Shown one piece after another: positions 32,506 to 61,201 of a stretch of 64,000 nt of DNA. The stretch covers positions 20,745 through 84,744 of the forward strand of contig JAQUBA010000002.1 in the NCBI GenBank assembly GCA_028686985.1, in the 5' to 3' direction. The notes under the pieces are model-generated. The model searched no databases. It had not been told where the DNA came from and saw only the letters and a list, made by a program, of their open reading frames with translations. Positions within the stretch are counted from its first letter, which is position 1. Each line of letters begins with the position of its first letter. The stretch comes from Candidatus Iainarchaeum sp. (GTDB lineage Archaea > Micrarchaeota > Micrarchaeia > Anstonellales > Bilamarchaeaceae). A program made the translations under genes and the position numbers.

Positions 32506-32994
32506 TCATTTTTTGGTGCGCGCCTCGTCCACTATCGCCAGCCACGAGTCCCCGATTTTGTAGAAGCAGTTCCCGAACGTCTTGCTCAGGCTTATCCTCA
32601 TGGGGCGGAATTTCCTCTTGCTCTCCACCGCCACTATGGTTTCCCTCTCAACCTTAATCATGCCCACGCGCCTCAATCTCGGAAGCACGCGGTTGTAGAA
32701 CGTCGCTTTGGAGACATTGTTGTCCGAAACAAACTTGCCGATGTCCGCGCCGTCCATGTGCGGCTTAGCCGCAAGCGCATCAAGGAATTTCACCGCAATC
32801 TCGTGGTAGGTTGGCTGGAACTTCTTTGAGAATACGACGTTCACCACGTCCTCCATCTTCCAGAGGTTCCGCGTCAGGCTTTCATTTGAATCCTGGAAAG
32901 GGCGGAATTCCTCCGCGTTGTGCGCCGGGAAGTACAGGGATTCGGAAGAGGGAATTCCCCTTGGTATTTTCTTCTCCCCAGCCATTCCTTTCAC
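32506..32994 (-). CDS. Hypothetical protein (possible wHTH regulator)
   Basis: 162 aa, basic C-terminal half; no confident family. Confidence 0.35.
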   Translation of the reverse strand: MKGMAGEKKIPRGIPSSESLYFPAHNAEEFRPFQDSNESLTRNLWKMEDVVNVVFSKKFQPTYHEIAVKFLDALAAKPHMDGADIGKFVSDNNVSKATFYNRVLPRLRRVGMIKVERETIVAVESKRKFRPMRISLSKTFGNCFYKIGDSWLAIVDEARTKK

Positions 32995-33039
32995 CTGCCA
33001 TTGCTGCTTGCCGTGCCCGGCGCAAAGTGCACCGGGAAC

Positions 33040-33357
33040 TCACACATCCAAGCCGAATATCGAGCCGAAGCCGCCCTCCGCGGCCTCATCCTCCGCCTCC
33101 ATTTTTTTGAGCACGCGCTCCTCCTCGTCCTTCTTTATTTCGCGGAGCAGGGGCTTGAGCCGCTCGCCCGCCTTTTTTATGAACTGCTCGTCCGCGCTAA
33201 TATATAGATATATCGTATCGGCCTTCTCCCCAAGTGTGGCCCCGTCCCTGAGCTTGTAGCCAGCCCGCGCGAAGCTGTCCTGTGCATACGGGTCCGCCTC
33301 AAGGATGGGCGTGAGGTCCTTCTTCTTCTCCGCAGGGAATGCGAACACGATTTTCAT
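33040..33357 (-). CDS. Small hypothetical acidic protein
   Basis: 105 aa; adjacent (1 nt) to upstream membrane gene. Confidence 0.35.
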   Translation of the reverse strand: MKIVFAFPAEKKKDLTPILEADPYAQDSFARAGYKLRDGATLGEKADTIYLYISADEQFIKKAGERLKPLLREIKKDEEERVLKKMEAEDEAAEGGFGSIFGLDV

Positions 33358-34041
33358 TCACTTCACCCTGACCAAAGAATATGCGGGCTCCACGCGCACG
33401 AAGCCCGCGCCCGCGAACCTCTCCTGCACGAGCGCAATTATGCTGTTCAGCGAAACGTATGTTACGCACATGCCGGAAGCGAACAGGCACCTCTCCACAA
33501 GCACGAGCGGGATGAGCGCCCACCACGCGGCCGCCGGCAGCCCGATAAGATACAGGAACGCGATTGAGCCGACCACGTGCGCCTGGAAGGTGGATGCGAG
33601 GCTCCTCATGAAAAGGTTGGACGCGAAGAATGTTGCAACTATGGGAATGAGCCACAGGAAAGCATAGCCCCACGCCTCGGCTCCCACCGGGTTCAGCCAG
33701 AACAGGAGCATGCCCGCGAGCGGGATTGCGATGCCCGCCCATTTCTTCGCCCTCACCATGCCGAAGCACACCGCCGCCGCGGCCACTGTGAAGAGACGTA
33801 TGAAGCTTATCGCATCCCAGGCGAATTTCCCCAGGAACAGTTTTGAGGCGAAATCCACGGCGATGGCGGACAGCGCCCCGATGCCGGGGCCCATTATGCC
33901 TCCGCCCACCGGGCCGGCGAACTGGAACATCGTGAAGCTCTGCTGCTGCGAGCCGACGATGTAAGAAAGGTTCACGGTGGAGAACGCGAAAGACAGCACC
34001 GAGAACAGGACCAGAAATATTCCTAGCTTGAGCTTTTTGTC
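33358..34041 (-). CDS. Multi-pass membrane protein (possible ECF-type substrate-capture/transport component)
   Basis: ~227 aa from MDKKLKLGIF; 6-7 TM helices, Gly-rich GPVGGGIMGPGIGA segment. Confidence 0.4.
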   Translation of the reverse strand, partial: DKKLKLGIFLVLFSVLSFAFSTVNLSYIVGSQQQSFTMFQFAGPVGGGIMGPGIGALSAIAVDFASKLFLGKFAWDAISFIRLFTVAAAAVCFGMVRAKKWAGIAIPLAGMLLFWLNPVGAEAWGYAFLWLIPIVATFFASNLFMRSLASTFQAHVVGSIAFLYLIGLPAAAWWALIPLVLVERCLFASGMCVTYVSLNSIIALVQERFAGAGFVRVEPAYSLVRVK

Positions 34042-34252
34042 CATAATCCCACAAGGGAAATTAAGCAAAGCAAAGTATAAAAGCAATTGCCCCGCGCCGC
34101 GCTTGTGTGAAGGGAAATGGCTGCCTGCGCAATCCTGTGTGAAAAAGTATTTTCCTAGTATTATTTTGCGCTTTACGTGTGTGCGTAGTTTTTAATCAAG
34201 GTCTTTTGTGGAAGGAAGATATATAAACCTTGACTAACGTAATTATGCAGGT

Positions 34253-35056
34253 GTGATTATGCAAAGCACGGGCTCTGTTAGGGAAAGGGGAAGGCAGAAT
34301 TTTGGTCAGCCGGTCACGATGCCCCCGATTGTCGGGGAAGACGGCGTGCAGCGCGAATATGTGTTCCGTGGTGGGACCGCCCAGGCGCAACAGGACATAG
34401 AAGCCATGGCGAGGCAGCTCAACCGCCTCTCCCTCCAGCACGGCGGCATCATACCGCTGTCTGCATTGCCCGGAGAAACCAGGGAGAAATTTGACAGGCT
34501 TGTTTCGGAAGCGGAGGGCACAAGGGTTATGCTGAATGAACGCGCCTACCCATGTCTTGAAGTGAGGGAGACCGGGGGCAGCGTTTCATTCGAGCCGGCC
34601 GCGGTGACGATGGCTCCGGGCGAAGTTATTTCCAGGGATGAATGGCAGACCAGGGTTTCCATGGTGAATTTTGACATACCCGCGGGCACCACGGCCCATG
34701 TTGCATTTGAAGGCGGCCCAAGCGAAGTGCCGATGGGCGGCCGTTTCAGGTTCTATTGGCAGGGCGTGCCTCCGAGGGACCTCGCGGATTTCGTCGCGAG
34801 GGCGGATGACTGCCTGGTCCCGAACAACGATGGCATCTCAGGCACATGGACGGGATTTGACAGCACTGGGAGGATGATTACGCTCAACATCCGTCCGGGT
34901 GAAAACACGCCGACCTCCAGTGACACGCAGGCAGCCATTATTTATAATCTCGCGGTTCTCCTGAACCAGCGCAGTGACCTTGCTGAAATCGCGACCCCGG
35001 TTGGAGACCTTAACCCGTTAAACGTGAGGCCGAGGCCGAGACTGAGGGAACAATAA
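34253..35056 (+). CDS. Hypothetical protein
   Basis: 267 aa, coding-like, no signal peptide recognised. Confidence 0.4.
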   Translation: MIMQSTGSVRERGRQNFGQPVTMPPIVGEDGVQREYVFRGGTAQAQQDIEAMARQLNRLSLQHGGIIPLSALPGETREKFDRLVSEAEGTRVMLNERAYPCLEVRETGGSVSFEPAAVTMAPGEVISRDEWQTRVSMVNFDIPAGTTAHVAFEGGPSEVPMGGRFRFYWQGVPPRDLADFVARADDCLVPNNDGISGTWTGFDSTGRMITLNIRPGENTPTSSDTQAAIIYNLAVLLNQRSDLAEIATPVGDLNPLNVRPRPRLREQ

Positions 35057-35067
35057 TCGGTGTTCTG

Positions 35068-36030
35068 ATGGGCACTGAAAGAACGCCTTGGTTTCGTTCC
35101 GCAATCCAGCCACACGTTCAGCCACTAACTCCAAGAATTAAACGGCACCGGTTCCCAGAGAAACTTTTTGCCCCCGCCGCTGCCGTGGCACTTTCCATAT
35201 TCATCCTCCACCCCTCCAAATCGGATGCATCCGTAATTACGCAGCGCCCCGCGCCGCCCGCGGCGAATCCGGTGGCAGCGAATCCGCGCCCCTCAACGCA
35301 ATTCGTTATTCCGCCGACCCCGGCGTTCAGCTATGATGGCGGCACGCTCGGGCTGGAGAACTCGCCGGAAGGCCTTTCGCTCGTGTACAGGAAGGAAGGC
35401 CAGAGCCCCAACCGTGTCCCGCTGGATGTGGGTTTTGAAGACATGATCGGCACCATAACCAGGATTCATTATGGCATTGGCCACTCCGTCATCATGGCGG
35501 AGAGGGTGCTGGAAGATGGCGCGACCGAATATTACGCCGTCATCACGCTCGGGGCGAGGGACGTTGCCGAGGGAAGGGCAAAACTTCCAGGGAGCGAAAT
35601 CTTGAACTCGTACGCGGTCGTGCTTCCGGAAATGCCGCTCGCGTCCTCCTTCACGGAGAGCGCGCTCTTCGTTTTCGCGGAAGGCGGCGTGGTGAGGTTC
35701 GTCCCGCTTGGCAGCGACGAAGGCATGACGTGCAAGCTTAGCGGGCTGGACGGAGTCGGCGCGCAGAGCATCGCGATGGAATACATGGGCCTATATTTCA
35801 TCATGCAGCCGGGTGCGGTCCCGCTGTATGTTACCAAGAGGGACGGCGATGATTTTGAGACCGTGCCGTGGGACTACGCGCCGGGCAGCTCGTTCACCTC
35901 GCTGAGGGTGGAGATGGGCGAGAACGGGTTCACAATCGTCTTCGCAAGCCCCGCGGGCAGCATGAGAATGGACGTTTCCGTCCCCGAGGAGGGCGGCTTG
36001 CATTCGGTTGGCGCCTCCATGCACAGGTGA
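35068..36030 (+). CDS. Hypothetical N-terminally anchored (signal/TM) protein
   Basis: 320 aa; hydrophobic segment AAAVALSIFILHP near N-terminus, Pro/Ala-rich linker. Confidence 0.4.
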   Translation: MGTERTPWFRSAIQPHVQPLTPRIKRHRFPEKLFAPAAAVALSIFILHPSKSDASVITQRPAPPAANPVAANPRPSTQFVIPPTPAFSYDGGTLGLENSPEGLSLVYRKEGQSPNRVPLDVGFEDMIGTITRIHYGIGHSVIMAERVLEDGATEYYAVITLGARDVAEGRAKLPGSEILNSYAVVLPEMPLASSFTESALFVFAEGGVVRFVPLGSDEGMTCKLSGLDGVGAQSIAMEYMGLYFIMQPGAVPLYVTKRDGDDFETVPWDYAPGSSFTSLRVEMGENGFTIVFASPAGSMRMDVSVPEEGGLHSVGASMHR

Positions 36031-36078
36031 CGCCCGCCCTGCAAAAAAGCTTTTATTCCTTCCCTCCGTAGGGGCAGC

Positions 36079-36540
36079 ATGAGATGGCTCTTCGTCTTCC
36101 TGGGTGCACTGCTCCTCGCTTCGCTCGCATACTCCGAGCTCACGGTCTTCGCGGCGCAGATACCCGAATCCGGCGCGGTACGGTATTCCGTGGCCCAGAG
36201 GGGCGCGAGCGGCTCCCACCTTTTCATAACGGTGAAGAAGGGGGACACGCAGGTGCAGGCATTTGAGGTGCAGGACTTCAGCGGGGTCGCGAACGGTTAC
36301 ATTTCGCTTGCGGAGGGCGGCACATACCGCCTCATCGCGGTTGAGGCCGACAGCGGCGATTATGCCGAGGCGCAGTTTGAGTTCGCCGCGCCGCAGCCAT
36401 CTGTTCCACCCTCAAGCACGCCAACCTCGCTGGTGCGCGGCATCCCGGATTACCTCATCCTGATAGCCGCAGCCCTTGCCGCGGTGCTGGTGTTCCTGCT
36501 TATGTTCAGCAATCCGCTAAGGCAAAAGCCCAAAAAATGA
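36079..36540 (+). CDS. Small secreted protein with N-terminal signal and C-terminal TM anchor + basic tail (archaeosortase/PGF-CTERM-like sorting signal?)
   Basis: 153 aa; MRWLFVFLGALLLASLAYS signal; C-term PSVPPSSTPTS linker then YLILIAAALAAVLVFLLMF + RQKPKK. Confidence 0.5.
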   Translation: MRWLFVFLGALLLASLAYSELTVFAAQIPESGAVRYSVAQRGASGSHLFITVKKGDTQVQAFEVQDFSGVANGYISLAEGGTYRLIAVEADSGDYAEAQFEFAAPQPSVPPSSTPTSLVRGIPDYLILIAAALAAVLVFLLMFSNPLRQKPKK

Positions 36541-36681
36541 GAAACATCTTTTTCCTCCTTTAAAACCACCTTTCATTCGGTATATTCCTAAAAACAGATT
36601 TTCACCTATTTACAGTTATCAAAACATCTTCGCTGCGCAATCCTTATAAATGCTCTCTACGCGTATATACATGGTGTAATT

Positions 36682-39600
36682 ATGGTTTCTGGCAGCGTTC
36701 GCACAACTGAGGGGCCGACAACTTCTTTTGGCTTGGTGCAGCAGCTTCCCGCGGACAGGATGGCGGGGGCGCGCGAGGTCAATTTTGAGATAAATTTCAC
36801 GGTCGCAGGCGCGGAAAGGGAGGCTAGGCAGGCGCGGGCGGTGCTGATGAGGGAGCTGGGAAGGTGCACCTTCACCACCTCGCTGCAGCGCTTCATAGAT
36901 TCGCACCGCGACCAGATAAATTATGTTAAGATAGCCGGCACGCGGATGGACGTGGACGGTGCGCTGTTTGAGCTTGAGGATTATCTGGAGCCGGGGGTGG
37001 CGCCAGGCGGATACCGCAGGCCCGCCGCGCAGGCGGTGCCAACGCCGACGGAAGCGGTGCCGCAGGTTGTGCAGCCGGCAAGGATTGAGGAAGCGCCTTT
37101 GCCGGAGATTAGGAGCCCGCTGGAGTACATGCGCCAGCAGGAAGAGGAGCGCGCGCAGGAACAGGAAGAACGCGCGCGGGCGCAGGCGCAGCAGCCGGAG
37201 CAGGCGCAGGCGGAACAGGTTGAGCCCCCGCCGCAGCTGCAGGAGCAGGAGGGAGTCCTCCTCACGCAGCAGGAAGCCGCAGCGGTTGAGGCGGTCCCCG
37301 AAGCGGTTCAGGAGCAGGCCGCCGAGCAGGTGCGCGAGAACGTCACCGTGATAAATGCGGCCGTTCCGCTTGATGCGGAATACTACCAGAGGGAGTATCT
37401 CGCGCCCGAGGTTTCGGAAGGCGTGAGGACGTACTCCCGGGTCAGTTCCCCCCATCTTATGGTCATGGGGTGGTGGGGAGAGCTGGTTGAATCATGCGAA
37501 AGGAGCGAGGCGCTCGCAGCGAGGCTTGATGCAATCACTTCCCAGTATTACGGTGCGCTCGATACGCTAGAAGGGGCAAGGGGCACGCCGGGGGAGCGCG
37601 CTTTGCAGAACAAGGTGCGCGAGCTGGAGGGGCAGATGCGCGCGATTGAGCGTGAGATGGATCCGATGCTTGGGAGGCAGGGCCAGCTCATGGTGAACAT
37701 ACTTGCGAATCTTCCCGACGCGTACGGCTGGGCGATGAGCGAGCCGAGCAGGGACCGTGACGCGATGCTCGCCGACCTCAACGCAATAAGGGATGAGTGG
37801 GCATCCAACCAGGCAAAGATAAGGGATGCGCTCTCGCTAAGGGAGATTTCCGGGGACATCGCGGGGGCCTTTGCCCCTGCATTTGCAGCCGCAAGGAGGG
37901 GCTCCATAGAGAACATGTATGACGTTTTTTCGCGCATGATGCAGAACAGCCCGGAAATCGCGCAGAGCTTCGTGGACTGGGTTGCGCTCGGCGAGGCGGC
38001 CCGCGCCTCATACGCGGCCATACCAGTCGGCGAGATAGGCGCAGCGGTGCCCACACTGGGCGAGGCAACAACCGGCGGAGCATTTGAGTTCAGGAGCCGC
38101 CGCGGCACCTTCAGGATAACAATAGCCGGAGAGGACCTTTCCGGCATGACGTTTGCCGAAGCCAAGAGGCGCGTGACTGAGCTGGTGAACGACCAGTCCA
38201 TCGGCAACCAGCAGCTGCTCGGGATGCTCACGGTGGAACAATTGCGCGAGGGGAAAGAGCCCTACCGCTTCATGAGCAGGTACCTCCTGCGCACGCAGTT
38301 CTTCCAGGACTACGCGAGCGGAAACATACGTGTCCTTGAGACCGCGCCGCTCACGAGGGGAGGAATCCCCGCGTCCGTGTATGAGGTTGCGCATGCGCCC
38401 CCGGTCGTGGCCGAGAGGCCGCTCCCGGTTGTTCCTCAGGTCACAGCGCCGCCGGCTGAGGCCGCGCCCGCCCCGGCAGCCGTTGCCTACAATTACGGAT
38501 GGGCAGAAGGAATACAGGAAGAGCTCAGGGGGATAGTCAGCGAGCTTGTAAATCTTCCGCGCTTCCGGCCGGAGGAAACCCAGGCACGCCACGATGAGCT
38601 TGTCGCGAGGGGGGCCGCGCTCTACCGGGAATTCTATTCCCATGTGGGTGAGGCGGAGCCCTCTGAAGATTTGAACCGCATACGGAGGTGGATGTCCAGC
38701 GCTGAAAGGATGTCTTCGTTCGGGTTGGCACTTAATGAGGGAGGGGCGCTTGTGGAGGCAGTGCGCCCAGCCCCTCCCGAAGCGGCAGAAGCGGTTCCGC
38801 CGGCAGCACCGGCAGCCGTGCCGGTTCCCGCAGCTCCGGTTGCGGTCCCGCCAACCGCCGCACCAGTCACCGCGCCGCCGGGCGAGATTTACGTTCCGTC
38901 CGTTCCGACTGCGCCGGCACCCGCACCCTCCGTTCCGGTTTTGGAAGGGCAGCCGCTCGCCGCATTCGCAAGGAGATACGGGATTTCAACTGATGATGCG
39001 CGCGACCTGAACCGTTTCCAGCTCGGGCAGCGCAACGTGCTTGAGGTCCAGGCGAACAGCGAGGAGAACGCAAACCGCCTACTTAACCTCGTTCGGATGG
39101 AGGCAAACAGAAGGGGTGTCGCATCCGAATACGACGTCATGCCGCCACAGGAGGCTGGCGGCCCGTATATCGTATATTACCGGCCCATGGGCATGCTTCG
39201 CGCCGCGGACAGGGCAGCCGTGGAGGCGCAGAACCCCTTCGCGTTCGTCGGCTTCGCAACACGCCTTCCGATGGAATACGCATTTGACTTCGCGGGCATA
39301 AACACGAGGTTCGGCCAGGCATTCGCGCCATACGAGGCGCGGCTCGTCGGCTTCGCGGACGCCGCAACCATAGCGCAGAACCCGGACGCCCAGCTGCCTG
39401 CATACGCCGCGGACACGGTCACGGGCCTCGCATCCTGGGTGTTCCATATCGGCGGCGAAAGGGTGAGCGGCCTTGAGAGGGCGGGCCAGCTCATATACGC
39501 ACGCACGCCCCAGCAGCCGGTTGCGCTCACGGTCGGGGAGGCCGAGGCGCTTTTCCTGAACCAGCGGGAGGCGGCCGCGTTCGCGGCTGCGTTCTTCACC

Positions 39601-41424
39601 GGGGACGCCGGTCGGGCGTACAGGGATATAGAGGGCAGGACCCTGAATATTTTTGAGAGCAACATACGCGCCGCGCTTGCGGAGAGGGACAACGCAGAAG
39701 TGCGCGACGCCCTTGGGGGCGCCCTCGGCCGCTATGCGACGGAGGCATACACCAGGCTATCGCGCTATTACGGCAACCCCGCGCTCGTTGAGGAGAGGAT
39801 AAGCACGCTGGAGCCGGAGGCGCGCATGAGCTTTGAGTACGCGGCGGAGATGCTCGGGGAGGCGATGTACAGGATGCGCCTTGTGCAGACCGGCGAGCCG
39901 GAGAGCGAGGACCTGCGCATTGCATGCGTCAATTCCGCGCGTGCAATCCTGATTGTGAAAATAGAGGGCGAGGGCGGCCGCGTCGCGTTTGACAAGTTCA
40001 TGCACAACGGCAGGGAATACAACGTGGGCACTAACTCGCTCTTCACCTCCGGCAACGTGCAGTTCGCGCTGGAGGACGGGACGGTGCTCTCCAACCACCT
40101 GCTTTACGTGCCGCAGCCCGAGCCGGGCGTCGTGCTGATAGTGGGCTACATGAAGGGCAACGACAGGCACATGCTCGCGGACGAGGGCATAACGCCGTTC
40201 ATCTACGACCTGAACCAGCAGGGCCACCTCCGCGATTCGCTGGGGTTCGCCGGCCTCACGGAGAGGTGGACGTGGCACCTGCCCCTCATAGACATACGCG
40301 TGCCCGAGGAGGGGATGCTGCTTGGCGAGGACACTCCGCTGTTCAAGGCGATGGACCCGCTTGTGATGGATCTCCATACCAAGCCCACCGAGGTATCCCT
40401 TTACATAGAAGGGAATTTTGACCTCGTGCCCGCCGACTACGGCGCAGGCGCGGACATAGACGATGCGAAATTCATAATGGAGAACGTGCGCCTTGGGGGC
40501 GAACTGGTTCCTGCGGACAGGGTGTTCTCGTATGAAGGCGTATGGTTTGAGTTCAACAACTTCAGGCGCGCCGGCCAGAACAGGTACTTCGCAACCGCGG
40601 CGCCGGAGGTCACGAGCACGTATGCCGGCATGTTTGAGGAGCCGGGCGAGATACAGAACGTCGCGGAGTTCGCTGCGGACGGCCGGGTCTATGCCTACAT
40701 GCGCAACGGCAAGCTTGTGGACGCGGAGAGGCAGGCGGATTCGGAAGGCGTCATGCGCGTGTGGATAGGCACATACCGCTTCACGCTTGATGCCGAGGGC
40801 GAGCGCATAATGCCCGACGCCTCCACCATGGCGATATTGCCGGAATACAGGAGCCTGATATTCGCGCGCATAGGCAGGGAGGAGCTTGAGGCAAAGATTG
40901 CGGAGGAAAGGGCGGCGGTCGGCGAGTACAGGATTGAGATAGACCTGAACACGCAGGCGAGTTCCGTTGCCGGGGAGAGGGTGATTCCGTATCTTTACAT
41001 CCACAAGGGCCCGATAGCCCCGGAAACCGAGGCAGGCGCCGGCGCGGACCTGCGGGTCGCGGAGATATACGACGCCGAGGGGTACCTTGTGCCCAGGGCG
41101 CAGCGCATAGATGCGATTGACGCAAGGTTCCTGGCCATACAGGACCTGAGGGGCACGGAAATCACCGTGGAGTCCTGGAACGCCCTCAAGGCGGAGATGG
41201 ACGGGTTGCATGAAGAGAGGGTGAGGCTTTTCACCGAGATGCTGGGGTTCACCACGGACGCGATGGGGAGGATAGAGGCAAGCGGCATACTGCTGGACGA
41301 GGAATCCAGGGGCCGCCTGCAGACGCAGGAGGCCGCGTTGAGGGCCAACATCTCCGGAATGGGAAACGTCTGGTCGGCGTGGGAAGCCGCAAGGGACAGG
41401 GTAGACAGGCAGCTTGGATTGTGA
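36682..41424 (+). CDS. Giant hypothetical protein (1580 aa) with Q/E/A-rich and P/A-rich low-complexity linkers and a possible LysM-like segment
   Basis: Uninterrupted 4743-nt ORF with GC3-rich codon bias; TA-rich upstream region (36541-36681); antisense ORFs inside it are artefacts. Confidence 0.7.
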   Translation: MVSGSVRTTEGPTTSFGLVQQLPADRMAGAREVNFEINFTVAGAEREARQARAVLMRELGRCTFTTSLQRFIDSHRDQINYVKIAGTRMDVDGALFELEDYLEPGVAPGGYRRPAAQAVPTPTEAVPQVVQPARIEEAPLPEIRSPLEYMRQQEEERAQEQEERARAQAQQPEQAQAEQVEPPPQLQEQEGVLLTQQEAAAVEAVPEAVQEQAAEQVRENVTVINAAVPLDAEYYQREYLAPEVSEGVRTYSRVSSPHLMVMGWWGELVESCERSEALAARLDAITSQYYGALDTLEGARGTPGERALQNKVRELEGQMRAIEREMDPMLGRQGQLMVNILANLPDAYGWAMSEPSRDRDAMLADLNAIRDEWASNQAKIRDALSLREISGDIAGAFAPAFAAARRGSIENMYDVFSRMMQNSPEIAQSFVDWVALGEAARASYAAIPVGEIGAAVPTLGEATTGGAFEFRSRRGTFRITIAGEDLSGMTFAEAKRRVTELVNDQSIGNQQLLGMLTVEQLREGKEPYRFMSRYLLRTQFFQDYASGNIRVLETAPLTRGGIPASVYEVAHAPPVVAERPLPVVPQVTAPPAEAAPAPAAVAYNYGWAEGIQEELRGIVSELVNLPRFRPEETQARHDELVARGAALYREFYSHVGEAEPSEDLNRIRRWMSSAERMSSFGLALNEGGALVEAVRPAPPEAAEAVPPAAPAAVPVPAAPVAVPPTAAPVTAPPGEIYVPSVPTAPAPAPSVPVLEGQPLAAFARRYGISTDDARDLNRFQLGQRNVLEVQANSEENANRLLNLVRMEANRRGVASEYDVMPPQEAGGPYIVYYRPMGMLRAADRAAVEAQNPFAFVGFATRLPMEYAFDFAGINTRFGQAFAPYEARLVGFADAATIAQNPDAQLPAYAADTVTGLASWVFHIGGERVSGLERAGQLIYARTPQQPVALTVGEAEALFLNQREAAAFAAAFFTGDAGRAYRDIEGRTLNIFESNIRAALAERDNAEVRDALGGALGRYATEAYTRLSRYYGNPALVEERISTLEPEARMSFEYAAEMLGEAMYRMRLVQTGEPESEDLRIACVNSARAILIVKIEGEGGRVAFDKFMHNGREYNVGTNSLFTSGNVQFALEDGTVLSNHLLYVPQPEPGVVLIVGYMKGNDRHMLADEGITPFIYDLNQQGHLRDSLGFAGLTERWTWHLPLIDIRVPEEGMLLGEDTPLFKAMDPLVMDLHTKPTEVSLYIEGNFDLVPADYGAGADIDDAKFIMENVRLGGELVPADRVFSYEGVWFEFNNFRRAGQNRYFATAAPEVTSTYAGMFEEPGEIQNVAEFAADGRVYAYMRNGKLVDAERQADSEGVMRVWIGTYRFTLDAEGERIMPDASTMAILPEYRSLIFARIGREELEAKIAEERAAVGEYRIEIDLNTQASSVAGERVIPYLYIHKGPIAPETEAGAGADLRVAEIYDAEGYLVPRAQRIDAIDARFLAIQDLRGTEITVESWNALKAEMDGLHEERVRLFTEMLGFTTDAMGRIEASGILLDEESRGRLQTQEAALRANISGMGNVWSAWEAARDRVDRQLGL

Positions 41425-43156
41425 GGTGGTATGGATGAATGCACAAAGAATGGCCCGGGAGCCGCGCGAGCTTTCCGCGGATGAGCTTGTTGACGAATTC
41501 AAGGCGGTTTCGCAGACCTTCACCGGCCGTGCGACTAGCCTTATCCCCGAACTCCAGAGGAGGCTGTCGGACGAAACCCTGCGGGAGCAGCTTAGGCCCA
41601 GGGCGGGCGAGCTTGCCGATTACCTGCACGCGCTTGCCGGTGCGTTGTCTTCAAACCTTGTCATTGAGCAGGCTGAGCCGCTTGTGCAGCAGGCCCTGGG
41701 GATGCGCACCGAGTTATACCTCATGAGCACGGTTCCGGTTGAGGAGGAGAGGCGGCTCGCAGAGCAGGGCGAATCCATGGTGGGAGTCGGCTACGTGAGC
41801 AGGCCAGGCGTCCCGCCGATAGAGCAGCCTGCCGTCAGGCAATACCTGTCCCAGAACCCGCTTGATTTGGTTGACCTTACGCTGCCAATTGACTGGCTGA
41901 GGCACTTCACTGATGAATACAGAGATACCACTACGCAATTGATAAGCGATGGCTATGCGCTTGAGCTTTCGCGGGACTTTGACGGCGCGAGGGAGAGGGG
42001 CGCACAGGCGGTTGACAACATCGCCAGGATGGTGAGGGAAGGCTCTTCTGGCGGCTCGGACATGAGCACCGACAGGTTGCTCAACGAAGACCCCTCTTCA
42101 TGGACGGAAGGGGAGCGCGAATTCGTAATTGACATGCTGGGCAAGGCGGACTGGTCCGCGGAAGAGCAGGCGAGGTACCTGCCGGAGATAGTGAGCCTCC
42201 TCAGGCTCATAAACGACGGGCAGTTCACCGAGGCGTTCGACCGTGCGGCCGGCGACACCACGCTGGGCCAGGCACTCACAACCATGCTCGTGGAAACCCT
42301 GGAGCAGAGGCTCTCCGTCCATGTTCCCGTGGGCTACCTGAACATCGGCGTGGAGGGGACGGTCGTCAATGTCCGGTATTCGGACGACGAAACGTTCCGA
42401 ATGTTCCTGAGGGGCTTCCTCAGGGGCGTCCTTGACCAGAAATACAAGCCAGCAGTATCCATCCGGGAAACCGACGGGGGTTCGGCAATTGATGTCCTGA
42501 TGGAGCCGACCGACGAGTTCGCGTTCGGAGGCATAGGCGGCGGTGGCGGAGTCGGCTTTGAAACTACCGCAGCCCATCCGATGAGGACTGTTTCTCTTGA
42601 GCTGGATGCGGCCTACGACCCTGTCGCGGACAGGCCCGTTTTCACCGGAAGGCTGGAGTTCTCGGACCAGAGCGGCGAGTGGACCGCCCCGCTGGACGGC
42701 GTAATCTACCCCTCGGTTTACCTGGAGGGCGGCGTGGACGCATCCGGAACAACCGGCCATGTGGCGGTGGGGGCGATGGTTGAGGCTGGCTCCTCGTATT
42801 TCATTTTCGGAGACTGGAGCATGTTCATGCTGCTGAGCCTGGATTACATAAAGAGGTTCGGCGAGCCAATAGTGGCGCCGTCAGAAAACCTTGAATTGGG
42901 CTTCGGGGGAAGGGTTGTTTATTCCGACGTCGTCTCGCTCAGCGGAAGGTATTTGCTCAACCCGATGAATGAGAACATGGGATTCATCGGGCAGGCGATG
43001 GTCAATGTGGGCGCAGGCGTGTCCCTTGGTTTCTCCGGCGGCTTCAGGGAAGTTGACATAAACATTTTCAGGAGCAGCCAGGCGATAATAGCGCCTGAAC
43101 TGTCTTTCAACATCGGATGGAACATAGACGATTTCATAAAATACCTTAGGGAATAG
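41414..43156 (+). CDS. Hypothetical protein (580 aa) with Gly-rich beta-rich C-terminal half, overlapping the giant gene by 11 nt
   Basis: Start overlaps giant-gene stop; C-terminal alternating hydrophobic/Gly pattern (GFGGRVVYSDVVSLSGRYLLNP...). Confidence 0.55.
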   Translation: MDCEVVWMNAQRMAREPRELSADELVDEFKAVSQTFTGRATSLIPELQRRLSDETLREQLRPRAGELADYLHALAGALSSNLVIEQAEPLVQQALGMRTELYLMSTVPVEEERRLAEQGESMVGVGYVSRPGVPPIEQPAVRQYLSQNPLDLVDLTLPIDWLRHFTDEYRDTTTQLISDGYALELSRDFDGARERGAQAVDNIARMVREGSSGGSDMSTDRLLNEDPSSWTEGEREFVIDMLGKADWSAEEQARYLPEIVSLLRLINDGQFTEAFDRAAGDTTLGQALTTMLVETLEQRLSVHVPVGYLNIGVEGTVVNVRYSDDETFRMFLRGFLRGVLDQKYKPAVSIRETDGGSAIDVLMEPTDEFAFGGIGGGGGVGFETTAAHPMRTVSLELDAAYDPVADRPVFTGRLEFSDQSGEWTAPLDGVIYPSVYLEGGVDASGTTGHVAVGAMVEAGSSYFIFGDWSMFMLLSLDYIKRFGEPIVAPSENLELGFGGRVVYSDVVSLSGRYLLNPMNENMGFIGQAMVNVGAGVSLGFSGGFREVDINIFRSSQAIIAPELSFNIGWNIDDFIKYLRE

Positions 43157-43166
43157 GTGGAATTAT

Positions 43167-45140
43167 ATGAAAAAAACCCTGTTGTTCATGGCGTTGGTCC
43201 TCTGCGTTTCGTTCGCCGAGGTTGTGGTCACGCAAGCATATGAGGGAAACCTTTACACTCCCAACACCCCCCCGGCTTATTCGCGGGTGCATATGGAACC
43301 GTTCCTCTATTTTGAGGACACGCTCGTAGTTTCCACGGATTCCCGCGTCATCTATGGCGGCCCCGCCGATGATTTGCAGCAGGATGCCATAATCTGCGAA
43401 GGGGACGTGACCACCTCCGCGGATGCGGACGGGGAATGGGCGCATGGCGGATTCTACCAGCATGTATATTACCTGCTCCCCTGCGAACCTCCATCCTATA
43501 GCCGGGTCAGCAACAATGTCCCGATATTCTGGGACGCGGACTCGTATGATGCGCTTTTTCCGGAGGATGTCTGCAACGAGGGCGAGCCCGGATGCTGGGG
43601 CATGGAGGGCTCCCCCATACGGCAGAGGGTGGACGTTTATGAGAAGTACGATGGCAGCGTGACTTACTCAAACAGGGAGGGGCAGACCAACGTGGTCTGC
43701 AAGGGAGTCACTACGCTCAGGTACGATGGCACGCTTCTGGACAGCTCGGTAATCGGCGACGCGCCCACCGGGGGGTCCATGCGGCTCACCCACGGGATGC
43801 ACACCATAACAAACGGGATGGATGTGCAGGGATGCCTCGGGGTGACCCGCAACGTTGCATGCGATGCGACCTCCGAACTCAGCGAGAGGGTGTTCGGGAG
43901 GACAAGCGCGCAGTTCGGCTCAGGGGCACCCGGATACTCAACCTCGCTCCAGTCCACAATGAACATCCGCGTCGTGACCGATGCGGACCTCCGCTGCAGC
44001 GCAGAGGCGGTTTCAGTAACCCCCTCCCCGGTGAATGTTTCCCCAGGGGGAACGCAGCGCATCACCATAACCGTGAGGAATGCATGCCCCTCCTCTGACC
44101 CGCTGTGCCAGCCCATTACGGTAACGGGGGTCACGGCCAGCAACGGCTTCAGGTTCAATTTTGACACAGGGGGAATGCTAGTCCCGCTCGGCTATTATAC
44201 CGTAAATCCGGGGCAGGCAAAGACGTTCAACGGAATCCTCACCGCCCCCGCATACACCACATGCCCAACCCGGCTCACGTTCACCGCGGCATACACCTGC
44301 CCGGGATGCACGGGCACTTTCAGCGGCACGCCCGCAACGGTAAATATCCCGTTTGACTGCCCTCCCCCGCCAGAAACGGAGGAGAACATCACCAACCTGG
44401 TGCCTAGCTTCACCCCGGACCTGCCAACCCGTGTAGACATAGAGACGGGCGGCGAACTTGACTTCAGCGTCATAACCTGGAACAACGGGCAGAACACCAG
44501 CAATCCCGGCGAAACGTGCGTGAACATAGGCAACTGGATGGTCAGCGGCCCGATTCCCGGCCCGAGCATAAGGATTTTCCTGGACCTTCCAGGCATATCA
44601 CCGATACGCTACTCATACGGTGCAATACCCCCGGGCGGCTCGGTCGTGCACGAACCCATAAGCTTCGCATGCACCCCCGCGATGGAGAACATGACCTACG
44701 TGCTGATTGCGAACGTGGACTGCATACCTCCTGGAAATGGCACAACCACTGAAACGGACGAGTCGGACAACATCGTGACAAGGGTGTTCAACTGCAGGCC
44801 AGCAACGGGCAACGAAACGGAGCACGAAGGCGAATACAACTGCGACATCAGCCCCTCGTTCCAGACCGGCTACCCGCTTGGCACATACTCCTTCCACGTG
44901 ACCTGCCCCGATGAAGGCAATCCGGACGACATGTGCGGCGGCTCCATAGACTGGGACTCCTCCTCGCGCAACGTGACATACACCGGTTCGGACGACCTGG
45001 ACTTCTACCGCATAATTGTTGGCGGCGCAACGCTCCCCGGCAGCGTATCCATAGTGGCGGACGTAAGGTATGATGACGGAAACGCGACCTGCAGAGCCGA
45101 GCTGAATGTCCCCACAGTCCCGTGCGAAGAATTTGTGTGA
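43167..45140 (+). CDS. Secreted cysteine-rich surface/adhesin-like protein with CARDB/DUF11-like repeats
   Basis: 657 aa; signal peptide MKKTLLFMALVLCVSFAEVVVTQA; 30+ Cys; repeated beta-sandwich-like segments (VNVSPGGTQRITITVRNAC..., VDIETGGELDFSVITWNNG...). Confidence 0.6.
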   Translation: MKKTLLFMALVLCVSFAEVVVTQAYEGNLYTPNTPPAYSRVHMEPFLYFEDTLVVSTDSRVIYGGPADDLQQDAIICEGDVTTSADADGEWAHGGFYQHVYYLLPCEPPSYSRVSNNVPIFWDADSYDALFPEDVCNEGEPGCWGMEGSPIRQRVDVYEKYDGSVTYSNREGQTNVVCKGVTTLRYDGTLLDSSVIGDAPTGGSMRLTHGMHTITNGMDVQGCLGVTRNVACDATSELSERVFGRTSAQFGSGAPGYSTSLQSTMNIRVVTDADLRCSAEAVSVTPSPVNVSPGGTQRITITVRNACPSSDPLCQPITVTGVTASNGFRFNFDTGGMLVPLGYYTVNPGQAKTFNGILTAPAYTTCPTRLTFTAAYTCPGCTGTFSGTPATVNIPFDCPPPPETEENITNLVPSFTPDLPTRVDIETGGELDFSVITWNNGQNTSNPGETCVNIGNWMVSGPIPGPSIRIFLDLPGISPIRYSYGAIPPGGSVVHEPISFACTPAMENMTYVLIANVDCIPPGNGTTTETDESDNIVTRVFNCRPATGNETEHEGEYNCDISPSFQTGYPLGTYSFHVTCPDEGNPDDMCGGSIDWDSSSRNVTYTGSDDLDFYRIIVGGATLPGSVSIVADVRYDDGNATCRAELNVPTVPCEEFV

Positions 45141-46543: not shown

Positions 46544-47152
46544 ATGGTGCAACCGAGGCAGGCTGACAAGGACTATGCGACTGAGGCGGTCAAGCAGGGC
46601 ATGTCGCTTTCGGAAACATCTTACTCCATCGCCGGGAGGGGTCTCGTTTATATTGCGACCGACAGGCCGCAGAGCTCATTCAATTCAGTTGACGCCTACA
46701 TCCAGTACGTCTATGAAAACAGGCACGACCGCGACCGGGTGCAGTTCATAAACATAGACAAGAACAACCGCTACAACTCGCGCAGCGAGCAGGACCTTAT
46801 CACAAGGGCAATCGCGGAGCAGGAGGGTGTGGAGACAGTCCCGCCTTTCCGGAGGGAGGCGATGCGGGTCGAGGAAACGGAGAGGAGGGAGACGGAGATT
46901 GTGCGCGTCAGTTATGCGGGAAGCCCAGTGAGGATTGAAGTGGACGTCACCGACATGAGGCAGGTGGACAGGGATTCGCTCAGGCAGGACATAGAGCGGA
47001 TGGGGCGCAGGCCGGATGAGAATGCCCTGTTCAGCCTGGTGGACCGGTATTTTCCCTACATAGACAGAATCACCGTGCGCGGCAGGGAAGTTGAGATGGG
47101 CAATTCCGGATCTGCCATGTCGGACATAAACAGCATTTCCGGGCATGTGTGA
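46544..47152 (+). CDS. Family-A paralog 1 (lineage-specific hypothetical; shares N-terminal YIATDR...YVYENRHDRD block with 50673..51389)
   Basis: 202 aa; ~50% identity over N-terminal 100 aa with A3; TATA-like acgtatataacg ~35 bp upstream. Confidence 0.55.
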   Translation: MVQPRQADKDYATEAVKQGMSLSETSYSIAGRGLVYIATDRPQSSFNSVDAYIQYVYENRHDRDRVQFINIDKNNRYNSRSEQDLITRAIAEQEGVETVPPFRREAMRVEETERRETEIVRVSYAGSPVRIEVDVTDMRQVDRDSLRQDIERMGRRPDENALFSLVDRYFPYIDRITVRGREVEMGNSGSAMSDINSISGHV

Positions 47153-47373
47153 CCGGGATTATTCAACGGGTGGAACGTATGGCAAGGGCGGAAGGAATGA
47201 AGTCCGTGCGTGTGAACGTTGCGGAAAAGTGGGAACAGGTAAAGGACGCGGTGCCGGTAAGGCTTCTGGACGCCAACCCCAAGGCGGAACGCCGCGCAAG
47301 GGATGGATGACGCATGCCACGCGGAGCACATGCAACACGGGGGGAAAGGAGGGAGGGGCAGAGCGAGCTTGAG

Positions 47374-48657
47374 ATGACGCGCCAGCAGGGCTTCACCGTA
47401 TATGGGCCGGTGAACGTGCCGGGCTATGGCGACATACACGTCGCATCAAGGGACATATGCGTATCCCCGCAGGAGCTGAGGGACTACGCCTACCGCGTGC
47501 TGTTCCCGGAATCCGCGGAAGGCAGCCCGAGCGACCGCATAAGGTTCCTGCGTTCCGGGGATACGAACTGCACCTATATCGCAATGGAGGAGGTGCGCGA
47601 GATATTCAGGAAGATAGACTGGAATGCGATATCCATGTCCGATGGCAGCATCTCCTTCCCGGACTTCAACGCAGAGCTGCAGTTCGTGGAGCGCAGGGAC
47701 TACGGCGGCCCGCTTCAGGCTCCCAGCCAAGCGCCCGCGGCATCCGAGGTTTCCGCCGCGCCGGTTTCCCGCGAAACCGAACTTCCGCAGGAAGGGGCGA
47801 AGCGCGCGGAGGCGGCAACCCGCGAGGAAGGCATCCCATACCTGGACCGGGAGCCGAGCTCCGTGGACGCAAGCCACATAATCTGGGGCGACTACTCATC
47901 CATCGTGGAGGGCACGCGCCGCACCCAGCCCCCTGAGCTCACGCAGCTGCAGAGGGAATACTTCGGGCTGAAGAGCGACGCCACATTTTACTGGAGGTCG
48001 CGCGGCACCGAAGGCTACGTAGCAATCTATTTCAATTTCATTTCCCCCGAGGGCGAGGCACAGGACACTCGGCAGCTCGCGCAAGAGCTCGCGGAGACGG
48101 AAGGGGACCTTTCCGCGCTCATCAGTTTCGTGCAGAGGCACATGGCAAACATCGCGGATGTGAACGTGGAAAGCGACCGGGGCGCGGGCGCGAACCTCAC
48201 CTCCGTCCAGCTGATTGCCGCGCTCTCCGCGATGGCGGGGCTGGAGCCGGCGTCCGCCGCAACGGAGCCCGTGCCGTCCATGCATGGGGGCAAGGCAGCG
48301 GTTTCGGCAGGGCTTGCCCAGGAACAGGCAGAGGAATACGGCGCACAGGTGATTGCCTACCCGGGCGACAACGTGATGGCTTCATTCCCTTCCATCACAT
48401 ATACGATGCGGGACGGCAGGACCGGCACCCTGGACGGATACTTCACGGTAACGCTCCCTTCGGACGAGCTTGAGGCGTGGAGGGTGCTCGTGAACATGCA
48501 GAGGATTGCGCGCGCACTGGAGCGGGGCGAAGCGATAAACGCACCGCTGCGGGACCTGCTCACGAATCACAGGGACAGCATAAGCTTCGTGGAGATGCAG
48601 GACTCCAACGGCACCCGCCTCACCGCGTCGCAGATAATCTACCGCTTGGAGCAGTGA
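47374..48657 (+). CDS. Hypothetical protein within paralog array (divergent member or distinct)
   Basis: ORF 47314..48657 (447 aa), start possibly at MTRQQGF; acidic, Ala/Glu-rich middle. Confidence 0.4.
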   Translation: MTRQQGFTVYGPVNVPGYGDIHVASRDICVSPQELRDYAYRVLFPESAEGSPSDRIRFLRSGDTNCTYIAMEEVREIFRKIDWNAISMSDGSISFPDFNAELQFVERRDYGGPLQAPSQAPAASEVSAAPVSRETELPQEGAKRAEAATREEGIPYLDREPSSVDASHIIWGDYSSIVEGTRRTQPPELTQLQREYFGLKSDATFYWRSRGTEGYVAIYFNFISPEGEAQDTRQLAQELAETEGDLSALISFVQRHMANIADVNVESDRGAGANLTSVQLIAALSAMAGLEPASAATEPVPSMHGGKAAVSAGLAQEQAEEYGAQVIAYPGDNVMASFPSITYTMRDGRTGTLDGYFTVTLPSDELEAWRVLVNMQRIARALERGEAINAPLRDLLTNHRDSISFVEMQDSNGTRLTASQIIYRLEQ

Positions 48658-48660
48658 GCT

Positions 48661-49533
48661 CTATTGCTGCGGCGGCGCGAGGTCTTCTCCGGATATTTCC
48701 ATTTCCCCCCCTCCATGCAATATGGCGTATCTGCCGCCCGCATTCCTTATCTCCGCCCTGCCGCGCACCGCTTCCGGGAGGATTATGGTGCGCATATCTA
48801 TCCGGGGCGTGCCGCCGAAATCCGCGGAGAGGACGTATGCGTTCGCGCTCCCCTCCTGCACGAGTATTGCGACGCTTCCAGCGGAAAGCAGCTGCCACCC
48901 TTCGGATGGCGCGAACTGTTTCTCGGCATACGGCACCCTCTCCATGCTCCAGCCCCTTGCGCCCAGCACCCCATCCCTGTTTATCATGAACATGCACGTC
49001 ATTCCGTTGTTGTGCGCGGCCGCAACCGAAAGGAAGTTCTCCCCCCTGAACCTGCTGTCCAGTTCAAAGGATATGGCCCTTGCGTCCCTGACCTCCCCCC
49101 CATCAACCGTTATCCACTCGTCCCCCCTTTCCGCCGCCTTCCATCCCATGACGAGCACTGCCCTGTCCTCCGAAACCACGACCGTGTGCTCCTCCCCCGG
49201 GACCATGGCCACAATCCTCCCGGGCTCGCCGTCCACCAGGTAGGTGAACCTGTAGGTGCCGTCCTTGGTCTCATATTCCATGCCGTACCTGAGTTTGGAT
49301 TCTGTAGCCCTGAAAAGGAAGCCGGTCTCCGCCCCGGCCCCGTTGCCTTCGGCCCGGAACCTCTCCTCGCCGAATTCAAATTCCTGCATATCGTTTTTCC
49401 TGGGCCTCACATCCCACCTGTCGAGGGGCACCGGGACGGTTTCTTCCCCCGCTGTGGCGTGCGGGCCGAACTTCTCATTTTGCACGGGCACCAGGCCCAT
49501 ATCGCCATATCTCTGCCCGCCTCTTTTCGCCAT
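48661..49533 (-). CDS. Family-B paralog 1 (no obvious signal peptide)
   Basis: 290 aa; shares GEEHTVVVSEDRAVLVMGW / GEQHSVVLTENYMMVVPG and C-terminal blocks with 53358..54275. Confidence 0.5.
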   Translation of the reverse strand: MAKRGGQRYGDMGLVPVQNEKFGPHATAGEETVPVPLDRWDVRPRKNDMQEFEFGEERFRAEGNGAGAETGFLFRATESKLRYGMEYETKDGTYRFTYLVDGEPGRIVAMVPGEEHTVVVSEDRAVLVMGWKAAERGDEWITVDGGEVRDARAISFELDSRFRGENFLSVAAAHNNGMTCMFMINRDGVLGARGWSMERVPYAEKQFAPSEGWQLLSAGSVAILVQEGSANAYVLSADFGGTPRIDMRTIILPEAVRGRAEIRNAGGRYAILHGGGEMEISGEDLAPPQQ

Positions 49534-49625
49534 GCATGAACTGGGTTCGGAAGAGTATATATTCCATTCGTGCGCAAAAAGAAAGATATTTAAATAAGCT
49601 CAACTGGATTATAGTGGGTGAAGTT

Positions 49626-50474
49626 ATGCCTGCACCGATGGTAAGACCTGAGAGGGAATTGAGAAAGGATTATGAAGCGACCCAGCAGATGCAGGTCGGA
49701 CAACTTCAGACCGAGTATGCTGATAGGGGATTTACAATTCTGAGGGCCGGTACGGACCTTGAAAATGTCAGGAGGAACATCTGGGCGGCATACGACCCCA
49801 AGACAGGGGACACTTATGTGTTCAGCGGTACGCGCGAAACCAGCTTCGGGACCAGCCAGTCGGTGTTGGACGCGGTTGGCAGATGGGTGGATAAGAGGAA
49901 TGCAGACCTTGCATTCAGCGAGACGATGGACGACACCCAGAGGCAGATCGACCTGAGGGGTTCGCGCGAGAGCGTGCGCAGCATGGACGCGCGCATGCAG
50001 GCATATTTCACCGAAGGAACGCAGCAGCCGGCGCAGGTGGCGAGGGAAACCCCCGCGCAGCCGGCCGCACGCGCAGCCGAGCCGGTGAGGGAGGAGCGCG
50101 CCCCGGCCACTGAACAGGCCGCCCCAAGCACGGCAGAGCCTGTCGCAAGGGAAGCCCAGCCTGCGGCCGCCAGTCGGCAACAGCAGGCGCTTGCAGATGC
50201 GATACGGACGGGGCAAAGAATGAGGATTCCAGTGTCCCAGAGCGGAAGTGAGCGGGTAATCATTACAATAGACGCTAGCCAGCTAAGCGAGTCAGATAGG
50301 TCTTTCCAGGCAAACCGGGCCGAGAGGGGCATTATCAACACTCCGGTTGGCATAATAGGGCTCTATAGGCTTTCCCGGGAGAATCCTGGCGCAATTTCTT
50401 TTACTTATCCTGATGGCACTCAGGTATCGGAAGATGATTTGCGCACCCGGGGCTGGCTCCCTCCGCGGGCATAG
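49626..50474 (+). CDS. Family-A paralog 2 (motif-bearing)
   Basis: ORF 49536..50474; start moved to MPAPMV downstream of TATA-like atatttaaata; contains VIITIDASQLSESDRSF motif; Pro/Ala/Glu-rich middle. Confidence 0.45.
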   Translation: MPAPMVRPERELRKDYEATQQMQVGQLQTEYADRGFTILRAGTDLENVRRNIWAAYDPKTGDTYVFSGTRETSFGTSQSVLDAVGRWVDKRNADLAFSETMDDTQRQIDLRGSRESVRSMDARMQAYFTEGTQQPAQVARETPAQPAARAAEPVREERAPATEQAAPSTAEPVAREAQPAAASRQQQALADAIRTGQRMRIPVSQSGSERVIITIDASQLSESDRSFQANRAERGIINTPVGIIGLYRLSRENPGAISFTYPDGTQVSEDDLRTRGWLPPRA

Positions 50475-50672
50475 CACCCGTTCCCGCCCTTCTTTTTCTT
50501 CTTCATCAATGGTTAATGGCATTTATGCGGGGGCTGGCACCGGCGGCATTGCCGGATGCGGCACGCAGCCGCCTGAACGATGGGCATGAAGCCCTCCGGA
50601 GCCGCCCGCCCGTATCCACCGACGCCCACCATTAGGTATAAATATGCTTGCAACGGCGTATATATCGGTGAA

Positions 50673-51389: not shown

Positions 51390-51392
51390 TAG

Positions 51393-52265: not shown

Positions 52266-52364
52266 TTTTCAATTTTATTTTTCTATCCTGCCATTCCCAG
52301 CCGCACTTCTGCAATCCACGGAAAACTATATATAGCTGACCGAAGGATTATCATAGGTGATGAT

Positions 52365-53342: not shown

Positions 53343-53357
53343 AAATCGGCTGTTCGG

Positions 53358-61183: not shown

Positions 61184-61201
61184 AAAACAATGGTGATTCG
61201 G

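Follow-up and report, generated by a model that had tools for sequence, protein, structure and literature searches.

The window analyzed here, a 64,000-nucleotide stretch of the Candidatus Iainarchaeum sp. contig JAQUBA010000002.1 (assembly GCA_028686985.1, positions 20,745 to 84,744 of the forward strand), contains a four-gene locus consisting of a gene for a small membrane protein (gene 0), a gene for a 1580-amino-acid (aa) protein (the giant) and two further genes (genes 2 and 3). A block of ~3.6 kb within this locus (40324-43952), comprising giant aa ~1215-1580, the whole of gene 2 and gene 3 up to residue ~262, is swapped whole between near-identical strains, and its borders lie on domain boundaries of two proteins. 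We refer to this hypervariable block as the cassette, to the successive parts of the giant as the N module, linker region, M module and C module, and to the variable and conserved parts of the gene 3 product as the head and stalk (Table 1). We tentatively read the locus as a lineage-restricted envelope operon with a strain-specific recognition or adhesion cassette, an interpretation to which we give slightly less than an even chance. A first-pass annotation of the same DNA had described the giant and genes 2 and 3 as components of an attachment system; its observations were confirmed in part and its interpretation is partly supported, and neither the fourth gene nor the hypervariable mosaic had been noticed in it.

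Related contigs were drawn from JGI, NCBI, ENA and Logan, and the loci on them are designated by L numbers. In the pair L015 and L004, flanks of 95.6% and 96.6% nucleotide identity enclose 3.66 kb without detectable similarity, the breakpoints falling ~23 aa after the RDSxG motif of the giant and at aa ~267 of gene 3. Gene 3 identity between these two loci is 30-57% in the head and 85-100% downstream. The L015 block is of the window type, scoring 108-110 bits per 100 aa against the window in the giant C module, 101 in gene 2 and 132 in the head. Although the aCPSF (beta-CASP) proteins encoded beside the locus are 94% identical between the window and L001, and most of the flanking DNA of the two has 77-86% nucleotide identity, their gene 2 products cannot be aligned (6 bits per 100 aa). 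Nucleotide similarity between the window and L001 is undetectable from 38355 to 43953 and resumes at 43954, within gene 3. At the protein level, gene 3 has 25-55% identity to L001 over aa 1-255 and 70-95% over the rest, and the giant C module scores 15 bits per 100 aa.

The giant itself is a mosaic. Its N module is 55-87% identical to both L001 and L002 up to aa ~565 and ~30% identical to distant genomes. Identity to L001 then drops to 8-33%, the M module included, and nucleotide similarity to this locus ends at 38354, making the linker region the first recombination boundary in the gene. The comparison with L002 holds at 63-87% identity through the M module to aa ~1195 and collapses thereafter, with nucleotide similarity ending at 40322. 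Between L001 and L003, the N modules have low identity, the M modules are 70-88% identical, and similarity collapses just after the motif RDSxG...W. The left breakpoint of the cassette is therefore found at the same domain border in three pairs (L015/L004, window/L002 and L001/L003). A ~95-aa module at the end of the N module ('GGAFEFRSRRGTFRI...', aa ~465-558, with the pattern YFEY..G..YRI.I.GEDLS.M....) is present in two copies in L003 (3121-8340) and stands after the P/A linkers, not before them, in L006 (3874-8112), indicating domain-level shuffling within the giant gene.

Co-variation of the modules was assessed using Mantel tests on nine phylogenetically non-independent loci. The giant C module correlates with the N part of gene 2 (rho 0.75, p 0.002-0.004) and the head of gene 3 (rho 0.85, p 0.001), as does the N part of gene 2 with the head (rho 0.87, p 0.001), and no correlation links any of these three to the M module, stalk or aCPSF. 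The stalk does correlate with aCPSF (rho 0.64, p 0.011); the M module shows no correlation with any other module and assorts independently. Two deep cassette classes cut across the species signal, class A being represented by the window, L015, L007, L006 and, by its gene 2 and head, L003, and class B by L001/L011, L004/L013 and L008.

Loci L004 and L013, which are 99.72% identical, differ by 4 mismatches in the 4.3 kb of the cassette versus 7-8 per kb in the M module and stalk. Local hypermutation was rejected on the basis that the cassette has no excess of mismatches in this pair, and the same pattern makes hypermutation of the diversity-generating retroelement type unlikely, although no reverse transcriptase search was made. 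Silent cassette copies and invertible repeats were both absent from the window. Because hypermutation, silent copies and invertible repeats are all lacking, we infer that the variation results from allelic exchange by homologous recombination at conserved borders. Such recombination at fixed breakpoints exchanges deeply divergent cassette classes between strains.

Table 1. Coordinates of the locus and of the modules of its products (positions in the window)
Feature	Coordinates	Strand	Extent and remarks
Gene 0	36079-36540	+	153-aa predicted bitopic membrane protein, directly upstream of spacer
AT-rich promoter-like spacer	36541-36681	+	TATA-like box TTATAAAT at 36644-36651
Giant gene	36682-41424	+	1580 aa; real open reading frame
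Giant N module	36682-38354	+	aa 1-558
Giant linker region	38355-38949	+	P/A-rich aa 561-600 and 681-756, helical insert aa 601-680 between
Giant M module	38950-40323	+	aa ~757-1214, ~460 aa
Giant C module	40324-41424	+	aa ~1215-1580; left part of cassette
Gene 2	41435-43156	+	573 aa; mechanical TTG start at 41414
Gene 2 N part			aa 1-~338; helical
Gene 2 C part			aa ~339-573; Gly/aromatic-rich, beta
Gene 3	43167-45140	+	657 aa
Gene 3 signal peptide and variable head	43167-43952	+	aa 1-~19; aa ~20-262
Gene 3 conserved stalk	43953-45140	+	aa ~263-657

The order small protein, giant, gene 2 and gene 3 is constant in every related locus whose contig suffices, with orthologues of 146-156, 1412-1739, 555-681 and 647-681 aa, respectively. 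In all loci recovered the cluster is convergent with the aCPSF gene and its surroundings are housekeeping genes, such as those for ScpA/B, L10e and the Suf system. The family is rare. Relatives of gene 3 were found in 4 of 185,579 GTDB species representatives, labeled Micrarchaeia, Micrarchaeota or 'archaeon', and on only 5 JGI metagenome contigs; the giant family amounts to 11 clusters among 1.84 billion representative proteins. The closest relative with a long contig lies on one of 1.03 Mb, as would be expected of a small DPANN genome. These data support a DPANN archaeon as the host of the locus and a lineage-restricted gene family.

The first-pass annotation correctly described the giant, gene 2 and gene 3 as co-directional (36682-41424, 41414/41435-43156 and 43167-45140) and preceded by a TA-rich promoter-like region. 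This region is a 141-bp spacer of 34% GC, compared with about 57-60% around it, and its sequence is nearly identical in L001 and L002. The TATA-like box lies 30 nt upstream of the giant ATG at 36682, which would fit a putative archaeal promoter yielding a near-leaderless mRNA. We take ATG 36682 as the true start of the giant because L001 and L002 both retain the first 26 codons in the same frame; the alternative start, Met27, is Ile in one of the two relatives compared. NCBI annotates the product as a hypothetical protein (1580 aa) in a metagenome-assembled genome (MAG) of 'Candidatus ainarchaeum sp.', and in a second MAG of the same species it is identical at 1578 of 1580 residues. The reading frame is thus unbroken by frameshifts in two independent MAGs and is no assembly artefact. 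In L013 (JACCLI010000074.1, MAG Sv319), a 1-nt indel relative to L004 at ~6919 splits the giant into open reading frames (ORFs) of 1297 and 328 aa, reflecting either an assembly error or a pseudogene.

An 11-nt overlap between gene 2 and the giant, as originally proposed, arises only from the mechanical TTG start at 41414. The most likely start of gene 2 is ATG 41435, which agrees with the 573-aa NCBI call, has the sequence GAGGTG 6 nt before it, overlapping the giant stop codon, and leaves a 10-nt gap. Gene 3 likewise starts 10 nt past the end of gene 2 and is preceded by AGGTGG. The 10-nt gaps, together with predicted Shine-Dalgarno sequences overlapping the upstream stops, point to translational coupling of the three genes.

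Gene 3 has the features of an exported protein. An N-terminal hydrophobic signal is present in all 11 family members, bearing out the signal peptide first recognized in the window. The cysteine count is 24, fewer than the >30 initially stated, and about 20 of these are invariant in the 11-member alignment. The protein had also been credited with repeated immunoglobulin (Ig)-like segments of the CARDB type, which is upheld at the level of fold and is borderline at the level of sequence. The structural model, with a mean predicted local distance difference test (pLDDT) of 62.6 (75-91 over aa 259-400), is all-beta with four to five sandwich domains, and its modeled sandwiches have the seven-stranded Ig-like topology. 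In this model the head forms a beta-sandwich interrupted by an insert that is rich in Cys and modeled with low confidence, and the stalk comprises at least three CARDB-like Ig sandwich domains. A Foldseek search with the model retrieved tandem Ig proteins. By sequence, CARDB (PF07705) is undetected in gene 3 of the window at E<=1 and is matched by a single family member of 11 (E=4.9e-4), and the family profile reaches 2l0d at E=0.21 among PDB sequences. The C terminus carries the invariant signature DGNATC...PCEEFV and has no C-terminal anchor. The modeled structure and conserved features support a secreted, disulfide-bonded chain of Ig-like domains for which CARDB is the best fold match. Compared with CARDB archaeal cell-surface proteins such as PF1109 of Pyrococcus furiosus (PDB 3idu/2kl6), the head and the cysteine pattern of gene 3 are family specific.

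Gene 0 is predicted to encode a signal peptide (aa 1-19), a ~85-aa beta-rich ectodomain, a Pro-rich spacer and a C-terminal transmembrane helix (aa ~126-144) followed by the basic tail NPLRQKPKK. Hydropathy peaks at both ends of the protein, and the transmembrane segment has a Kyte-Doolittle value of at least 2.9 in 6/6 orthologues. The gene lies directly upstream of the giant in all six loci with upstream DNA, and its alignment is highly conserved. Sequence-based prediction therefore supports a membrane-anchored ectodomain as its product. The combination of an anchorless secreted protein with a small membrane-anchored neighbor is reminiscent of the SlaA/SlaB S-layer, and the two could form an anchor-and-canopy pair. 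An S-layer identity of gene 3 was rejected on the grounds that gene 3 and 10 relatives match no S-layer profile at E<=1, including PF05123, which is carried by the Micrarchaeota S-layer protein SLP_Mh. Rarity of the family and hypervariability of the head also speak against a general S-layer role.

The giant N module contains a small variable N-terminal domain, a Q/E/A-rich stretch, a coiled-coil-like helical region and the ~95-aa module described above. Both the Q/E/A-rich stretch (aa ~139-216) and the P/A-rich linkers (aa 561-600 and 681-756, P+A 50-55%) seen in the initial inspection are real, and the helical insert between the linkers (aa 601-680) is absent from L002 (P0002). Invariant motifs of the M module are ACxNxxR, EY.xG and RDSxG...W. 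A catalytic M module, based on a Cys/His triad or a GDSL-like RDSLG motif, was considered and dropped for want of an invariant His. The C module varies from ~366 to 500 aa across orthologues and has helices at its end. The giant had been noted to have no obvious signal peptide, and by sequence prediction neither a signal peptide nor a transmembrane segment is present in 7/7 orthologues; a twin-arginine (Tat) signal based on GRRE in the giant N termini was rejected since no hydrophobic region follows it. The giant matches no known family, and no known secretion domain was found in it by sequence. Neither the giant nor gene 2, in the window or in any orthologue, has a match in Pfam, NCBIfam, PHROGs or PADLOC other than coiled-coil noise. 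Profile searches of both against PDB sequences gave only low-complexity matches to the P/A linkers, and an exhaustive HMMER search with giant aa 381-1580 returned its own family only, with no annotated relative. Both families are poor in cysteine (0.07-0.35% in the giant and 0-0.6% in gene 2, versus a window mean of 1.21%). With its length of 1580 aa and without an adhesin domain, the giant is not comparable to the multi-thousand-residue giant proteins of DPANN archaea.

Gene 2 of the window has no cysteine, signal peptide or transmembrane segment. Its Gly- and beta-rich end, also remarked on initially, is a consistent property of the family, the last 235 aa having 11-17% Gly and the beta exceeding the alpha amphipathicity in 7/7 orthologues. 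For a putative porin- or autotransporter-like transmembrane beta-barrel in this C part, the data consist of composition and a beta-type hydrophobic moment, and profile searches gave no match. Alignment of gene 2 with the giant and with gene 3 using hhalign detected no internal paralogy.

In the envelope operon that we favor, the conserved gene 3 stalk would be held at the membrane, perhaps by the gene 0 anchor protein, and would display the variable head, perhaps as a ligand-binding tip specific to the strain. The C module of the giant and the gene 2 product would then be cognate, co-adapted partners of the head, possibly in contact with it, or of the same target. It is possible that the selective agent is recognition of a host or partner, self/non-self discrimination, or escape from viruses that use the protein as a receptor. 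The idea of a cell-cell or host-attachment system put forward in the first-pass annotation is in agreement with the surface-protein features of gene 3 and gains from the hypervariability, which fits recognition; a surface location of the giant and a LysM-based murein-bearing partner are not upheld. Several observations count against the envelope reading. The most serious is that the giant and gene 2 have no signal peptide, transmembrane segment or known export domain in any orthologue, so that a surface complex containing them needs an unknown export route or else their role is intracellular. Linkage alone could explain the co-variation of adjacent DNA, and the nine loci of the Mantel tests are not independent samples. 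The cassette is also not indivisible, as L003 appears to join a giant C end resembling class B to a gene 2 and head of class A. N-glycosylation sequons are not enriched in gene 3 (8 versus ~6 expected), and the AF2 model of giant aa 768-1580, built on a 3-sequence alignment, has a pLDDT of 39 and is unusable for assigning a fold.

A stronger version of this proposal, which we consider doubtful, is that the giant C module, the gene 2 product and the head form one distal, strain-specific surface recognition complex that would determine allorecognition or host specificity in a DPANN episymbiont, with the ancient classes A and B under balancing selection. Two of the three components would have to be exported without a known signal, and the Gly-rich beta domain of gene 2 might be a conduit or membrane-inserting element. 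If so, the cassette classes would be functionally comparable to mating-type or major histocompatibility complex-like loci. Almost no molecular determinants are known for the recognition of and attachment to specific hosts by DPANN archaea, and the locus offers a testable candidate in which a discrete specificity cassette can be swapped within a conserved framework of four genes. Since the cassette is delimited by domain borders, correlations of its class with the hosts or viruses that co-occur in metagenomes can be sought.

The closest parallel is VARTIG (VARiable Thermococcales IG), a lineage-specific module in which large proteins are combined with secreted proteins of the CARDB/Ig type (Makarova et al. 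2021, PMC8416519). Makarova et al. reported that the C-terminal Ig domain of VARTIG is hypervariable through in situ inter-species recombination, proposed a role in conflict or self/non-self recognition for a module of unknown function, and found no counterpart outside the Thermococcales (PMC8416519). The present locus shares with it an archaeal, lineage-restricted combination of a large protein and a secreted protein of Ig/CARDB fold, a recombining hypervariable terminal region at a fixed chromosomal site that does not follow the species tree, and conserved cysteines in the exported Ig protein. It differs in belonging to a Micrarchaeia-type DPANN archaeon, in having its variable part in an N-terminal head instead of a C-terminal Ig domain, and in its fixed gene order and content, which are shuffled in VARTIG. 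Moreover, the variable block spans three genes, including a 1580-aa non-Ig protein and a 573-aa orphan, and gene 3 ends in ...PCEEFV with neither the DNNxxxGG C-terminal motif nor the GN motif. By analogy, we class the locus as a VARTIG analogue and not as a member, a distinction that is drawn on architecture and motifs, membership also being defined by homology to arCOG07710/arCOG14200. Recombination-driven hypervariable Ig modules, until now described only in Thermococcales, would thereby extend to an unrelated small-genome lineage.

Other explanations of the variable block were weighed against the envelope operon. Only the exported gene 3 head might be under diversifying selection, for instance as a virus receptor or host ligand, with a cytoplasmic giant C module and gene 2, unrelated to it in function, diverging and traveling along solely through their position between two conserved stretches at which recombination can begin. 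This hitch-hiking would account for the absence of export signals from the giant and gene 2, for the physical contiguity of all co-varying parts and for the weaker correlation with the cassette that the C part of gene 2 shows (rho 0.31-0.45). We nevertheless regard it as unlikely, given that extreme divergence is seen in the giant C module (15 bits per 100 aa) and in gene 2 (6 bits per 100 aa) themselves at 94% aCPSF identity and that linkage to a 0.8-kb target would not keep 2.8 kb divergent given time for recombination. In three independent pairs the left breakpoint falls on one and the same domain border, and the non-adjacent giant C module and head correlate as strongly (0.85) as adjacent pairs. 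Polymorphic toxin systems typically swap in unrelated folds. The locus resembles such systems (CdiA-CT/CdiI, Rhs) in its large protein with a conserved N part and a recombining C part, its co-varying downstream gene and its module shuffling at P/A linkers; the giant could on this basis be an effector with a variable toxic C part, gene 2 an immunity protein or partner, and gene 3 a delivery or targeting component. The authors of the VARTIG study drew the same analogy (PMC8416519). We judge a conflict system of this type to be rather improbable here, because no toxin, immunity, Rhs/YD or other repeat, peptidase, trafficking or secretion domain was detected in Pfam, NCBIfam or PADLOC, and the variable parts are large (366-500 and 555-681 aa), homologous across classes and share motifs such as AEF..G.VY.Y...GK.VDA. 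Gene 2 is also far bigger than typical immunity proteins, and the variable block reaches into a third, secreted protein.

Phage tail-fibre and chaperone loci, such as T4 gp37-gp38 and P2 H-G, combine a mosaic fibre gene that has a variable distal part with a co-varying neighbor and exchange these by recombination at conserved borders. If the locus were a viral host-recognition module, integrated or domesticated, the giant would be tail-fibre-like, gene 2 a chaperone or adhesin and gene 3 an Ig-decorated structural protein. A conserved N part, a tip that varies at the C end and co-variation of the gene downstream are typical of phage fibre loci, and the gene 3 model does give generic Ig-like matches to viral structural proteins. 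The TM scores of these viral matches are only 0.1-0.2, however, and the locus occupies the same core chromosomal position between housekeeping genes in every genome. With no PHROG match, no tblastn match in 50,697 phage records, no relative in IMG/VR contigs and no capsid, portal or terminase genes nearby, a viral origin appears very unlikely. We give still less credence to the proposal that the giant binds peptidoglycan through a LysM domain during host attachment, implying a bacterial or murein-bearing partner. The proposal stems from giant aa 750-789 (VPVLEGQPLAAFARRYGISTDDARDLNRFQLGQRNVLEV), which resembles the LysM consensus by eye, but the LysM-like stretch (aa 757-789) matches no LysM profile: PF01476 is undetected at E<=0.1 in the whole giant, at E<=1 in 7 orthologues and at E<=10 in isolated 70-75-aa segments of 5 orthologues, which already contradicts the proposal at the sequence level. 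The LysM-like residues (YG, LN and GQ) are found only in the window and L002 (P0002) and are lost in L001, L003, L004 and L008, and the low-confidence model of aa 768-835 (pLDDT 53-71) has the order alpha-beta-alpha-beta-beta instead of the beta-alpha-alpha-beta of LysM. The extracytoplasmic location that peptidoglycan binding calls for is likewise at odds with the predicted lack of an export signal in the giant, and the suggestion of a murein-bearing partner falls with the LysM domain.

The neighborhood of the operon contains several further lineage-specific features. Upstream, 34092-36042 is a 1.95-kb insertion relative to L001 and L002, in which the flanks are contiguous, and holds two orphan ORFs, 34253-35056 (267 aa) and 35068-36030 (320 aa). 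The 320-aa product has an N-terminal hydrophobic segment and paralogues of ~31-33% identity downstream of aCPSF in L003, L004 and L008. A conserved block of divergently oriented orphan genes, 29689-32451(-) and 32506-34054(-), encoding proteins of 920, 162, 105 and ~230-250 aa, lies beside the operon in all loci. The 162-aa protein of this block is 83-97% identical across genomes, far above the conservation of the operon, and the gene for the 920-aa protein has a gap in nucleotide similarity to L001 at 29818-30661. The mechanical 251-aa ORF at 33299-34054(-) (TTG start, isoelectric point 11.6) overlaps the 105-aa ORF by 59 nt; its start is probably mis-called, counterparts having 230-263 aa. 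Farther upstream, 27978-29687 encodes a Cys-free 569-aa protein with a winged-helix-like N-terminal segment followed by a long coiled coil. It has weak matches of SMC, LmuB and JetC type (E 3e-6 to 1e-5), adjoins the gene for L10e and the homologues of ScpA/ScpB that are seen in L001, and may represent a reduced partner of SMC type.

Downstream of aCPSF, the region 46544-54275 is a series of lineage-specific orphan genes. ORFs 46544-47152 and 50580-51389 are paralogues, with ~39-40% identity to the same L001/L008 gene, and ORFs 51393-52265 and 53358-54275(-) have twin-arginine-like N-terminal signals, RRGATAKIIAAGLMLAP and RRSLALAIAGSIMLAAP, and a late transmembrane segment. The start of the mechanical 297-aa ORF at 61148-62041 is probably wrong, because a tRNA-Pro (GGG) gene at 61111-61183 overlaps its 5' end.

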